From the IMG/VR virus record IMGVR_UViG_2671180896_000002: 47,890 nucleotides of DNA. The stretch is one strand, 5' to 3'. A program made the translations under genes and the position numbers. The notes beneath the pieces were generated by a model that did not search any database, was not told the origin of the DNA, and saw nothing but the letters and a program-made list of their open reading frames with translations. Below, one piece after another: positions 15,142-35,434 of the stretch. This DNA is from a virus. Its lineage: Duplodnaviria > Heunggongvirae > Uroviricota > Caudoviricetes. Each line of letters begins with the position of its first letter. Position 1 is the stretch's first letter.

Positions 15142-15166
15142 TAAAAATGGGGCCGAAGCCCCGTTT
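15142..15166 (-). terminator. Rho-independent terminator after the major capsid gene
   Basis: Minus strand: ACGGGGC-TTCG-GCCCC followed by ATTTTTAA, 7 nt downstream of the capsid stop. Confidence 0.6.
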
Positions 15167-30946: not shown

Positions 30947-31033
30947 ATGGAAAACAACAAATCTGTACATTACGTTCCTTTTTTATCTGTAATACTTTTT
31001 GTTTTATGCTGTGCGTGGGCATTATTTTTATAA
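30947..31033 (+). CDS. Small hydrophobic peptide (28 aa), candidate small membrane protein/toxin
   Basis: ATG preceded by AAGGTGAG SD at 6-nt spacing; MENNKSVHYVPFLSVILFVLCCAWALFL, a single predicted TM segment; not in the supplied ORF track (too short). Confidence 0.3.
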   Translation: MENNKSVHYVPFLSVILFVLCCAWALFL

Positions 31034-31124
31034 AAATATTTACAGATGAAGTAAACCCGCCAATCAGGTTAACTGTGGCTGCGTTGAGGATGCATAATAC
31101 ATCAGAGGTTGCGGGGATTTCTCC

Positions 31125-31147
31125 CATAAGCGCTAACTTAAGGGTTG
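31125..31147. repeat. IS186 left terminal inverted repeat
   Basis: CATAAGCGCTAACTTAAGGGTTG; exact reverse complement of 32441-32463. Confidence 0.9.
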
Positions 31148-31173
31148 TGGTATTACGCCTGATATGATTTAAC

Positions 31174-32292
31174 GTGCCGATGAATTACTCTCACGATAAC
31201 TGGTCAGCAATTCTGGCCCATATTGGTAAGCCCGAAGAACTGGATACTTCGGCACGTAATGCCGGGGCTCTAACCCGCCGCCGCGAAATTCGTGATGCTG
31301 CAACTCTGCTACGTCTGGGGCTGGCTTACGGCCCCGGGGGGATGTCATTACGTGAAGTCACTGCATGGGCTCAGCTCCATGACGTTGCAACATTATCTGA
31401 CGTGGCTCTCCTGAAGCGGCTGCGGAATGCCGCCGACTGGTTTGGCATACTTGCCGCACAAACACTTGCTGTACGCGCCGCAGTTACGGGTTGTACAAGC
31501 GGAAAGAGATTGCGTCTTGTCGATGGAACAGCAATCAGTGCGCCCGGGGGCGGCAGCGCTGAATGGCGACTACATATGGGATATGATCCTCATACCTGTC
31601 AGTTCACTGATTTTGAGCTAACCGACAGCAGAGACGCTGAACGGCTGGACCGATTTGCGCAAACGGCAGACGAGATACGCATTGCTGACCGGGGATTCGG
31701 TTCGCGTCCCGAATGTATCCGCTCACTTGCTTTTGGAGAAGCTGATTATATCGTCCGGGTTCACTGGCGAGGATTGCGCTGGTTAACTGTAGAAGGAATG
31801 CGCTTTGACATGATGGGTTTTCTGCGCGGGCTGGATTGCGGTAAGAACGGTGAAACCACTGTAATGATAGGCAATTCAGGTAATAAAAAAGCCGGAGCGC
31901 CCTTTCCGGCACGTCTCATTGCCGTATCACTTCCTCCCGAAAAAGCATTAATCAGTAAAACCCGACTGCTCAGCGAGAATCGTCGAAAAGGACGAGTAGT
32001 TCAGGCGGAAACGCTGGAAGCAGCGGGCCATGTGCTATTGCTAACATCATTACCGGAAGATGAATATTCAGCAGAGCAAGTGGCTGATTGTTACCGTCTG
32101 CGATGGCAAATTGAACTGGCTTTTAAGCGGCTCAAAAGTTTGCTGCACCTGGATGCTTTGCGTGCAAAGGAACCTGAACTCGCGAAAGCGTGGATATTTG
32201 CTAATCTACTCGCCGCATTTTTAATTGACGACATAATCCAGCCATCGCTGGATTTCCCCCCCAGAAGTGCCGGATCCGAAAAGAAGAACTAA
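31174..32292 (+). CDS. insL: IS186 transposase (IS4 family, DDE)
   Basis: 372-aa ORF (M)PMNYSHDNWSAILAHIGKPEELDTSARNAGALTRRREIRDAATLLRLGLAYGPGG..., recognisable as IS186/IS421 transposase; sits inside the inverted repeats. Confidence 0.9.
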   Translation: MPMNYSHDNWSAILAHIGKPEELDTSARNAGALTRRREIRDAATLLRLGLAYGPGGMSLREVTAWAQLHDVATLSDVALLKRLRNAADWFGILAAQTLAVRAAVTGCTSGKRLRLVDGTAISAPGGGSAEWRLHMGYDPHTCQFTDFELTDSRDAERLDRFAQTADEIRIADRGFGSRPECIRSLAFGEADYIVRVHWRGLRWLTVEGMRFDMMGFLRGLDCGKNGETTVMIGNSGNKKAGAPFPARLIAVSLPPEKALISKTRLLSENRRKGRVVQAETLEAAGHVLLLTSLPEDEYSAEQVADCYRLRWQIELAFKRLKSLLHLDALRAKEPELAKAWIFANLLAAFLIDDIIQPSLDFPPRSAGSEKKN

Positions 32293-32440
32293 CTCGTTGT
32301 GGAGAATAACAAAAATGGTCATCTGGAGCTTACAGGTGGCCATTCGTGGGACAGTATCCCTGACAGCCTACAAAACGCAATTGAAGAACGCGAGGCATCG
32401 TCTTAACGAGGCACCGAGGCGTCGCATTCTTCAGATGGTT

Positions 32441-32463
32441 CAACCCTTAAGTTAGCGCTTATG
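32441..32463. repeat. IS186 right terminal inverted repeat
   Basis: CAACCCTTAAGTTAGCGCTTATG; exact reverse complement of 31125-31147. Confidence 0.9.
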
Positions 32464-32485
32464 GGATTTCTCCCCGCCGGTCCTC

Positions 32486-32641
32486 TTACTCCCCAAGTTC
32501 GTAAGCTGTGAAGACAGCGACCTCCGTCTGGTCGGTTCGGATTCGTACCTCGCAGAGGTCTTTCCTCGTTACCAGTACCGTCACTATAACGGTTAAACAG
32601 ATGACGATCAGGGCGACTAACATCGCCTTTTGCTGCTTCAT
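32486..32641 (-). CDS. hok: Hok/Gef-family type I toxin (small membrane toxin)
   Basis: MKQQKAMLVALIVICLTVIVTVLVTRKDLCEVRIRTDQTEVAVFTAYELGE (51 aa), near-identical in pattern to HokD/RelF and HokC; the supplied ORF extends in frame upstream to 32698. Confidence 0.85.
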   Translation of the reverse strand: MKQQKAMLVALIVICLTVIVTVLVTRKDLCEVRIRTDQTEVAVFTAYELGE

Positions 32642-32970
32642 AGCCTGCTTCTCCTTGCCTTTCGGCACGTAAGAGGCTAACCTACATGTGCAAAGCATGA
32701 AATTGGCCTCAGATTAATGTTAAGCGTCTTGCCGGATGCGTAATGTTAACTGGGGCTTTTCTCTATCTGCCTTTGATGTTCATGCCCGAGGCAGATAGCC
32801 TCAAGTATCCGCAGCTATTTGTCTGCTGTTACCACCTACCTGCGCCAATCACTGACTCTACAAAGATCTATCCGCGATAACATTTTGAGTTTAAGAACTT
32901 TTGCGTACGCACCAAAAGATGCATATACTAGACTAGTCATAGTTCTAATCTGCTTGATTATGGAGTCAGG

Positions 32971-34029
32971 ATGAGTTTCCTTTCTGAACAAGACGTACAA
33001 AATTTAGTCATTAATAAAATGATCTTTCACGTTGTAGGTAAGAATCTTGAAGCACCGACACTTCTCAAAGAAATAAAACCAGTTCAGCATGTGGATTTTT
33101 TTCTTGAACGTATCAAATCTTCACTGAAAGGAAATCTTTTCACTTTTCTGGAGAATTCAAATACCGAAAGAATCCTGCGTATCATTAGAGATAAAGCAGA
33201 TGCTGAAGCTAATTGTTTTACAGAACAATCGAAGCTACTGGCCAGTGATTTTCAGTCACACCATTCTAGCGGTAACACGAGTATGGGATGCTTTTTCTTA
33301 TTTGAATTGGTTTCAGATAAGGAAAAATTATATGCAATTATAAAATACGATAATGAAGATGTGGTTCGTTATGTTCTTGACGAAAAGTTATCTGAAGAAC
33401 AAATGCCTACTTTAGAAAGATTTCATGAAACTTTCGTAAAAAAAGCTGAGGCAATGCAAAAAATAGCGTTAATTCAACTTGATCCAAGTGGGAAAGGCGG
33501 GAAAGTTATTGTAAAAGACAGGAGTAAAAGAACCAATATTTCAGGATATTTTAAAGGCTTCTTAAATGTTAAAAGAGTCAACTCTGAAATTGAACTTTGC
33601 AATAAGCTTATTGATGCGCTGAAAATAACCTTCAAAAGGCATAAAGAATTATTACCAGAGTCAATTCAAAAAAGCGGCGTAAATAAAATATATGAAGTTT
33701 TAAGCAGAGCTGATTTCGAATATAATCCTGAAGATGCTTCTCCGTTATTGACCAGCATTTTTGGGCCGTTAGATGAAAAATCACCAATTCTCAACACATT
33801 CAAAACTCAAACAAAAAATGCTGGTATTGAAGGCGAATCCTTTACTGTAAAAGCAGATGGCATTCATAAACCACCAAGACGAAAAATTGAAACTGCAGAA
33901 AGTGTAGTAATTAGTTATAATGAAGATGACCGTCCAGAAATAAGAAACTTAGATGATGGGCGAAAACAAATTATTGTTACTACTGCGAGGATTATTACTG
34001 ATGACATCGATACTTCAAAAAATCGATGA
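32971..34029 (+). CDS. NdpA/YejK (NA37)-like nucleoid-associated-protein-family protein, 352 aa
   Basis: ATG with GGAG SD; motifs NKMIFHVVGKN, MGCFFLFELVSDKEKLYAIIKYD and ISGYFKGFLNVKRV parallel YejK motifs (ALHQLIK, GGFVLFCHYRYLAVEYLL, YLTFLKGRVGRKV) as recalled; AT-rich gene on the strand opposite to flanking phage genes. Confidence 0.55.
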   Translation: MSFLSEQDVQNLVINKMIFHVVGKNLEAPTLLKEIKPVQHVDFFLERIKSSLKGNLFTFLENSNTERILRIIRDKADAEANCFTEQSKLLASDFQSHHSSGNTSMGCFFLFELVSDKEKLYAIIKYDNEDVVRYVLDEKLSEEQMPTLERFHETFVKKAEAMQKIALIQLDPSGKGGKVIVKDRSKRTNISGYFKGFLNVKRVNSEIELCNKLIDALKITFKRHKELLPESIQKSGVNKIYEVLSRADFEYNPEDASPLLTSIFGPLDEKSPILNTFKTQTKNAGIEGESFTVKADGIHKPPRRKIETAESVVISYNEDDRPEIRNLDDGRKQIIVTTARIITDDIDTSKNR

Positions 34030-35434
34030 GTCTATACAGGCGTCAAGGAAAGACCCTGAATTTTTGGCATCAGAATCAATAAAAAATGATTCTGCGCGCG
34101 TTCTAATTTCTGCCAAAATGGACAAAGATGCACTCATTCTTTGGCAGTACGTTTACGAAAACGTACCAAATTGGATTGAAATTACTGTTAAAGATGACTG
34201 TAATGACGAAGTAAAACCATCGTCATGCAGTGAAGGTGATAAACTTAACATTACGCTAAAATGCATTGCATTCGAAAATAACAGGTATATTTTTACGCTC
34301 GAAGGGTGGAATGTTTTTCTACACAATGATGATTTAGTATCAATAACCAATAAAGTGAATATTCTCGGTTTGAAACATGGATTTGAAACTTTAGGATATT
34401 CTGTTGAGCCATGGAACCATGCTCCAGAAAAAATTGAACCTAATGAAACCGTACGAACTTCAATCAATTTACAGAGCTACGTTAAATTCTATTCTAGTGA
34501 GTTCATGCCTGCATCTGATATAGCTCCTTGGGTACTTTATAAAATGCCTGAGGCAGAGGACAACTTTTTCAAAAAATGGTTACAAGTTTCCTGCAATATG
34601 CTTTGTCGCACTCTCGTTAATGAATTATTAGCAGATGAAAAGAAATCAATTTGTTTAACTGGAAAGCCACCAAAAAAATTAATTTATGGAGATCCAGACA
34701 TTCTGCTTTCCGACTATTCAGTTTTACAAACTGTAATAAACTGGATCTTTATTGAGGGCAATGAGATTGAACTCAAACATACTTTCTTCACAAGTGAGTT
34801 AGCACGAGAATGGCCAGAGTATGTATCCTTCTGTGAGGGTTTACCAAAAAAACTCCCTATGGCCTTTGAGTCAGCAAAATTACTATATAAGGCCCACATT
34901 CGCGCTAGCAGCAGAGAGACTATTAAATCTCTGTCCGATCTAAGGAAAACCTTAGCTGAAGACACGCAAAAAATAATAAGTCAGTCTAAAGACATCACAT
35001 CCGCTCTTTGGAAAGATCTGGCTCTGGTTATAAGTCTATTTGCAATAAAATATGCGCTAGACGCATCAAAGATTAATATAACCAATAACATATTCCCATA
35101 TATGTTCTTCGCGTTATCTATATATATTTTTATATCTCAGGTTACAACTCTCTTCATAAATAAAAATTACTTTAAGATACTTGATAATACTAGGCTAGTC
35201 TGGAGAGATAAACTATATGGTTTTCTTGATGATACTGACTATGAGAATCTTGCAGTCACACCATTAAGAGAGGCATACAAAGCTTATCAGATTATAGCCA
35301 CATTCGTTGTGATTCTGACTTTGCTGATTTCATTTATAATGATCATATTAGGATTCTCAATGCTTGATGAACATGCTACGAATGCAATTACCTCTTGGCT
35401 CAGTTCTCACTTAATCAATAGTTACTGTAGTTAA
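34001..35434 (+). CDS. Membrane protein, ~477 aa: N-terminal soluble domain plus three or more C-terminal transmembrane helices
   Basis: Start ATG 34001 (MTSILQKIDESIQ...) overlaps the upstream gene by 29 nt (supplied ORF begins at 33953); C-terminal hydrophobic segments LALVISLFAIKYAL, IFPYMFFALSIYIFISQVTTLFI, IIATFVVILTLLISFIMIILGFSML. Confidence 0.6.
   Translation: MTSILQKIDESIQASRKDPEFLASESIKNDSARVLISAKMDKDALILWQYVYENVPNWIEITVKDDCNDEVKPSSCSEGDKLNITLKCIAFENNRYIFTLEGWNVFLHNDDLVSITNKVNILGLKHGFETLGYSVEPWNHAPEKIEPNETVRTSINLQSYVKFYSSEFMPASDIAPWVLYKMPEAEDNFFKKWLQVSCNMLCRTLVNELLADEKKSICLTGKPPKKLIYGDPDILLSDYSVLQTVINWIFIEGNEIELKHTFFTSELAREWPEYVSFCEGLPKKLPMAFESAKLLYKAHIRASSRETIKSLSDLRKTLAEDTQKIISQSKDITSALWKDLALVISLFAIKYALDASKINITNNIFPYMFFALSIYIFISQVTTLFINKNYFKILDNTRLVWRDKLYGFLDDTDYENLAVTPLREAYKAYQIIATFVVILTLLISFIMIILGFSMLDEHATNAITSWLSSHLINSYCS

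Follow-up and report, generated by a model that had tools for sequence, protein, structure and literature searches.

A complete IS186 element lies in the 3' hairpin of hok, a toxin gene carried by a Rac-type lambdoid prophage, where it very probably arrived by motif-directed transposition, and comparison with relatives supports the view that the insertion detaches hok from the native 3' end of its transcript. The window (the whole 47,890-nucleotide stretch analyzed here, positions 1-47890) is such a prophage, ending at intR next to ttcA and carrying intR, xisR, recET, kilR, sieB, ralR, trkG, TolA-like fragments, and lysis, head, and tail genes. Window positions equal L001 coordinates plus 11099.

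The IS186 element and its target site

The element, its ends and the two halves of the interrupted hairpin occupy the following positions:

31111..31124, minus strand: hok-distal part of the interrupted 3' hairpin, one half of target site GCGGGGATTTCTCCCCGC, from comparison with the empty site and the fold
31115..31124, no strand: left copy of the target-site duplication GGATTTCTCC, 10 bp, directly outside the left terminal inverted repeat (IRL)
31125..32463, plus strand: complete IS186 (IS421), 1339 bp, 99.85% identical to K-12 IS186A
31125..31147, plus strand: IRL, 23 bp, CATAAGCGCTAACTTAAGGGTTG, the exact reverse complement of 32441-32463
31180..32292, plus strand: intact IS186 transposase gene (InsL), 370 aa, reading frame open, with A204V as the sole difference from K-12 InsL1
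32441..32463, minus strand: right terminal inverted repeat (IRR), 23 bp, a perfect match to IRL
32464..32473, no strand: right copy of the target-site duplication GGATTTCTCC, 10 bp, directly outside IRR
32464..32477, minus strand: hok-proximal part of the interrupted 3' hairpin, still joined to hok, from comparison with the empty site and the fold

Alignment of the element with K-12 IS186A gave two mismatches and no gaps over 1339 bp, and CATAAGCGCTAACTTAAGGGTTG also forms the termini of both K-12 IS186A and IS186B. The transposase scored 93.6 bits against Pfam DDE_Tnp_1, over the cut-off, and 133 bits against the NCBIfam IS4 family transposase model (transpos_IS4_1; cut-off 115), and it carries the RefSeq label 'IS4-like element IS421 family transposase'. 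By its sequence the element is IS186/IS421, a member of the IS4 family with a DDE transposase; all structural requirements for transposition are intact, and the copy may still be mobile. A degenerate or partial IS was ruled out, both repeats being perfect and the transposase intact. Of 5426 complete E. coli genomes, 2221 carry IS186, with a median of four copies among carriers.

The duplicated 10-mer corresponds to nucleotides +13 to +22 past the hok stop codon (32486-32488, minus strand). A sequence-only reading of this DNA had described a complete IS186 with perfect 23-bp inverted repeats, a 10-bp direct repeat on both flanks and a duplication 13-22 bp downstream of hok, and our coordinates agree with it on each of these points. 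An equally valid parse of the junctions gives a 1337-bp element with 22-bp repeats and a duplication of 12 bp (GGGATTTCTCCC). With GGGG/CCCC closing the target and C...G at the ends of the IS, the choice between 10 and 12 bp is ambiguous, which is inherent to IS186 targets and was the same at every IS186 site examined.

We joined both flanks with a single copy of the 10-mer and searched this empty-site query against the E. coli genome collection, which returned the uninterrupted site in 546 genomes. The best match, E. coli S42, has a single copy of the 10-mer and reads GCGGGGATTTCTCCCCGC without interruption (wider context GGTTGCGGGGATTTCTCCCCGCTGG), as the sequence-only reading had foretold. 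S42 differs from the window by 9 mismatches across 10 kb of flanks and carries the same Rac-type prophage and the same Hok protein (WP_197731663.1). The source of the empty-site sequence is thus E. coli chromosomes; in the phage collection, no record matched the full empty-site flanks, the matches being limited to the hok cassette. Related genomes showed neither the same junctions without a duplicated 10-mer nor differing empty sites, and on the sequence the GGATTTCTCC repeats are a transposition footprint and no chance repeat.

The target of IS186 is very specific, 5'-GGGG(N6/N7)CCCC-3' with insertion in either orientation, and the K-12 genome has only 19 N6 sites of this motif (Lee et al. 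2016, PMC5009759). The empty site, GGGG-ATTTCT-CCCC (GGGGATTTCTCCCC), fits GGGG-N6-CCCC, and the reconstructed 46.5-kb window contains just two such sites, the hok hairpin and one at 15149. When the reconstructed 3' region was folded, the target formed a 7-bp GC stem (GCGGGGA/UCCCCGC) within a longer stem (-26.1 kcal/mol over 69 nt, z = -3.2), in keeping with the earlier proposal of a GC-rich hairpin that matches IS186 preference. IS186 would have transposed into this GGGG-N6-CCCC hairpin, 10-27 nt past the hok stop in a Rac-type lambdoid prophage at ttcA, and the site would have been chosen because it is one of the two prophage sequences that fit the narrow motif. Its transposase would recognize GGGG-N6-CCCC, and staggered cuts around the 6-nt loop, followed by repair, would duplicate GG-N6-CC, which is GGATTTCTCC. 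The second motif site, GGGGCCGAAGCCCC at window positions 15149-15162, is unoccupied by IS186.

The hok/mok/sok locus and its 3' control region

On the minus strand, to the right of the element, lies a hok/mok/sok cassette, and an fbi-like element lies to its left:

31077..31089, minus strand: fbi-like element, CCUCAACGCAGCC on the hok strand, conserved in hokC, hokW, and plasmid hok
32486..32641, minus strand: hok toxin gene, 51 aa; Pfam HOK_GEF 76.5 bits (cut-off 22); RefSeq relatives are named Hok/Gef family or HokD
32486..32698, minus strand: mok reading frame, 70 aa, overlapping hok in frame, as mokC and mokW do
32636..32810, minus strand: hok mRNA leader and Sok target region, with the sok antisense within; full-length match to Rfam RF01794, 99.4 bits (gathering 59), E = 1e-22

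The RF01794 match places the 5' end of the hok mRNA (tac) at about 32810. We aligned the reconstructed locus with S42, K-12 hokC (its IS removed in silico), plasmid hok, and hokW of phage 933W, and found that homology runs about 50 nt beyond the insertion point and ends in a conserved CCUCAA(C/U)GCA(C/G)CC, which is complementary to the conserved hok mRNA 5' end GCGGGUGCUUGAGG. In the window, the fbi-like element is now 1.35 kb from hok, with the 1339-bp IS between them. The earlier claim that the insertion removes the native 3' end from the hok transcript is supported, since fbi is left of the IS and is conserved in the relatives.

MFE folds of four reconstructed hok mRNAs (368-391 nt, IS removed) paired the first 15 nt with the last 25 nt in all four cases:

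hokC (K-12): 12 of the first 15 nt paired to the last 25; 5'-3' duplex -18.5 kcal/mol
plasmid hok (pGF66.2-B): 12 of the first 15 nt paired to the last 25; 5'-3' duplex -21.2 kcal/mol
hokW (933W): 14 of the first 15 nt paired to the last 25; 5'-3' duplex -25.6 kcal/mol
window hok, reconstructed: 8 of the first 15 nt paired to the last 25; 5'-3' duplex -10.2 kcal/mol

The window hok 5' end also pairs in silico with IS-derived sequence at -15.1 kcal/mol, a value to be read with the ease at which such a partner arises by chance in 60 nt; IS-derived sequence as a replacement fbi was set aside as a probable chance pairing.

Within IS186, a terminator-like hairpin with a T-run (GCCGGAAAGGGCGCTCCGGC TTTTTTATTA) occupies 31891-31910 on the minus strand, antisense to the transposase gene. 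On the hok strand this hairpin (31910->31891) could stop hok read-through and give it a defined 3' end, and it might have a polar effect on prophage early-rightward transcription toward DUF1367/DUF1364/DUF1133 and the lysis genes. On the other side of hok, positions 32971-35434 (plus strand) encode an NA37-like nucleoid-associated protein (Pfam PF04245) and an overlapping 477-aa hypothetical ORF. In a moron-like position between the Q antiterminator and hok, this pair is encoded on the strand opposite to that of the phage early genes, and a PADLOC scan of it gave no match.

State of hok before and after the insertion

With the element in place, transcription of hok would continue into the IS through its right end and run antisense to the transposase gene. 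A hok mRNA without the terminal hairpin and fbi could not take the closed, stable, untranslated, Sok-refractory form, and, if R1 hok/sok and K-12 hokC and hokE are a guide, no pool of inert, slowly activated hok mRNA for post-segregational killing would build up. Any hok transcript made would be in the open form, and Sok-directed decay would remove it. For R1 hok/sok, the work of Thisted (1994) and of Franch and Gerdes (1996) reportedly found that mRNAs without fbi are quickly bound by Sok and cleaved, leaving no reservoir; in the R1 studies of Thisted, Franch and Gerdes, 3'-truncated or fbi-mutant hok mRNAs are likewise said to be translatable and to bind Sok rapidly. Reasoning by this analogy, we consider it fairly probable that the IS on its own abolishes the post-segregational killing capacity otherwise present at the hok locus, and we infer that hok function is lost with the IS, rather than earlier changes at the promoter or 5' end, as the cause.

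Behind K-12 gef/hokC, IS186 is thought to disrupt fbi and mRNA processing; the transcript there is about 644 nt long and ends within the IS, and gef/hokC is still transcribed and still under antisense RNA control (PMC3562002). Because K-12 gef/hokC remains transcribed and regulated despite its IS (PMC3562002), 'inactivated' may be too strong a word for the window hok. The IS could instead alter hok expression without abolishing it: a read-through mRNA lacking fbi would be translatable, and toxin would be available under Sok control, perhaps with different kinetics, to serve for example in phage defense or in arresting growth under stress. Points in its favor are the regulated K-12 transcript, the intact hok, mok, and Sok regions of the window, and the terminator-like hairpin at 31910->31891, which could define a 3' end for the message. 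We nevertheless judge altered expression to be improbable: the crude consensus scan recognized no promoter in this hok lineage, and the mRNAs of R1 that lack fbi were, as noted above, reportedly captured by Sok and cleaved too fast to build a reservoir. In addition, K-12 hok loci with an IS were classed as inactive by Pedersen & Gerdes 1999, as relayed in PMC2654758.

Loss of function through the IS also has to be weighed against the condition of hok before the IS arrived. Upstream of 32810, a consensus scan found no hok promoter in the window, the scan being crude and having also missed the sok promoter; the same scan of the canonical allele L010 (strain Combat11I9) found TTGGCG-17-TAGAAT at the expected place. 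L010 reads TTGGCG-17-TAGAAT-TGCTGCGGGTGCTTGAGG and the window and S42 read ACAAATAGCTGCGGATACTTGAGG, with the upstream sequence of the empty-site S42 being that of the window. At 32805-32850 (minus strand), the -10 region is ACAAAT/CAAATA in the window versus TAGAAT/TATAAT in canonical alleles. The mRNA 5' end (tac) is GGAUAC in the window and S42 versus GGGUGC in hokC, hokW, plasmid hok, and L010, two G-to-A changes that lower the predicted end pairing; with the IS removed, this pairing amounts to -10.2 kcal/mol in the window lineage versus -17.2 to -25.6 kcal/mol in relatives. The NA37-like gene beside the hok leader is found in only 29 of the 5426 genomes, some with the site filled and some with it empty.

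The IS may not be the sole cause of inactivity, because the empty-site S42 likewise seems to lack a recognizable promoter and has weak end pairing, and hok of this lineage may have been impaired before the IS arrived, making the IS neither the first nor the only cause. Promoter and 5'-end decay in the window lineage is a lead, not a demonstration. In its strongest form, this reading holds that the Rac-lineage hok was already dead before IS186, its promoter lost and its tac-fbi pairing weakened when the upstream NA37-type cargo came in, and that the IS was a neutral, motif-driven hit that changed nothing more in the phenotype. We consider it possible but rather unlikely. The window's upstream sequence in S42, the missing promoter-like site where L010 shows one by the same scan criteria, the GGAUAC 5' end with its lowered pairing energy, and the confinement of the upstream junction to those 29 genomes would all be expected from it. 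The scan, however, is a crude consensus match that failed on the sok promoter too, the hok and mok frames and the Sok target region are intact, and the identical insertion behind relBE-hokD (described below) means that the IS did not necessarily land first in the NA37-type lineage. The sequence-only reading had proposed that the IS may have inactivated the toxin gene; this remains plausible, but the IS may not be the only lesion, given the state of the promoter and the 5'-3' pairing in S42.

The practical consequence concerns annotation. It would be wrong to list the Hok/Gef gene of this Rac-type prophage as an intact hok/sok module for addiction or defense, because the 3' control region of its mRNA has been cut off and its promoter and 5' end also look degraded.

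Recurrence at hok loci and spread of the allele

IS186 lies beside hok at other loci as well, including two on the K-12 chromosome, hokC and hokE; the sequence-only reading had pointed to such copies in K-12 without naming the loci:

Rac-type prophage hok (window): duplication GGATTTCTCC; reference orientation
K-12 hokC: duplication GGATCACTCC; same orientation as the window
K-12 hokE: duplication GGAGTAATCC; orientation opposite to the window
plasmid hok (pGF66.2-B, pDX6A, pL73-2): duplication GGATCTCTCC; same orientation as the window; one shared event

Because the four duplications differ, at least four independent IS186 events have struck the same hok hairpin position. One of the closest parallels is K-12 IS186A/hokC (gef; NC_000913.3 15387-16731), a 1339-bp element with two nucleotides different, whose IRR abuts the hok 3' end at the same nucleotide of the GCGGGG-N6-CCCCGC hairpin, with a 10-bp GG-N6-CC duplication and fbi on the far side. 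It differs in being chromosomal, between dnaJ and nhaA with no prophage, in having its own loop and duplication and so an independent event, and in retaining a canonical promoter (TATAAT) and canonical 5' end. K-12 IS186B/hokE (NC_000913.3 608007-609351) shares a GGGG-N6-CCCC hairpin about 10 nt past the hok stop and a 10-bp duplication, but there the IS is reversed and the gene is a divergent hok paralogue (HokE), chromosomal beside entD. The plasmid hok insertions match the window in position and orientation and differ in being plasmid-borne. Their transposases are intact in pGF66.2-B and pL73-2, and that of pDX6A (L008, 1904-3016) has an internal stop and is annotated as a pseudogene. A junction query made of the IS right end and the hok 3' end was covered to at least 80% in 819 genomes, and most of these matches reflect shared ancestry of the hokC insertion.

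Outside hok, the IS186 hot spots in the lon promoter, fimA, and menC show the same motif, with the core and flanking G/C duplicated and insertion in either orientation (PMC5009759); they differ in being promoter or coding sites with selectable phenotypes, whereas in the window the motif belongs to the hairpin at the 3' end of the mRNA for a type I toxin. Conversely, hokW/sokW of phage 933W and other lambdoid-phage hok loci have a homologous hok/mok/sok cassette, a similar phage genome, and a 3' region with fbi but no IS, and the 933W hairpin, GGGGGAGTAATCTCCC, does not fit the IS186 motif. The original consensus target of IS186, along with hot-spot insertions, was reportedly set out by SaiSree et al. 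2001.

The recurrence of IS186 at hok is fully explained by the published GGGG-N6-CCCC motif and implies no new mechanism. A more far-reaching view starts from one hok mRNA branch (hokC, hokE, the Rac/Qin-type hokD group, and plasmid hok) whose 3' hairpin is the very rare IS186 motif, and takes these loci as recurrent IS186 traps beyond a coincidence of motif, each of the four or more insertions having severed hok from its fbi element; we hold this to be quite unlikely. If it were true, E. coli would have in IS186 insertion a general way of disarming hok addiction modules that can be used again and again, and hok hairpins would be safe landing sites that helped to shape the target choice of IS186. 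The IS186-hok association in K-12 was known already, and the window insertion is already annotated in public genomes. Our analysis adds prophage and plasmid cases to the two K-12 chromosomal ones, giving at least four independent hits at one hairpin position, together with an allele spread by recombination and a hok lineage that may already have been decaying.

The precise junction on the left, where Rac flank meets IS, occurs in 43 of the 5426 complete genomes, whose sources span several countries and include dogs, poultry, humans, and river water, and the insertion allele is seen in at least two hok upstream arrangements. IS-bearing strains include CUVET20-1667 and D9. In EH10-18-47 (L011, 1526-3640), the identical insertion, duplication, and flanks stand downstream of relB-relE-hokD, and the match to the window breaks off at 32655, immediately upstream of the ribosome-binding site of hok. 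To judge from the sequences, this breakpoint points to recombination among lambdoid prophage hok regions. Because 43 genomes and at least two upstream contexts share it, the insertion is an inherited or recombined allele and no private recent event. The insertion is structurally young, with ends, duplication, and transposase intact, so the earlier description of it as relatively recent is right about the condition of the copy and fails for its age as a single event, given its distribution.

A rival origin for the IS186-hok junction itself is that it was copied in from a different hok with an IS186, such as hokC, through homologous recombination or gene conversion. In its favor, the IS186 of hokC interrupts its hairpin at the same position and points the same way, hok loci share about 90% identity, to which the IS adds 1.3 kb of homology, and recombination clearly moves the allele between prophage contexts. 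Yet GGATTTCTCC is unlike the duplications at hokC (GGATCACTCC), plasmid hok (GGATCTCTCC), and hokE (GGAGTAATCC), it exactly matches the locus's own empty-site loop as seen in S42 and L010, and each flank stays specific to this locus as far as the end of the IS. We therefore rejected the idea that gene conversion from hokC-IS186 produced the junction; with a duplication that is that of its own empty site and differs from those of the other hok loci, the proposal is effectively refuted, and direct transposition into the prophage hairpin is the reading we retain.

Next to the insertion, an unannotated hydrophobic ORF of 28 aa (MENNKSVHYVPFLSVILFVLCCAWALFL) at 30947-31033 on the plus strand, preceded by a strong Shine-Dalgarno sequence (AAGGTGAG), converges on the hok 3' end. 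An NCBIfam scan of this ORF gave no match. It is conserved in S42 and L010, and its predicted product could be a small membrane protein or a toxin-like peptide.
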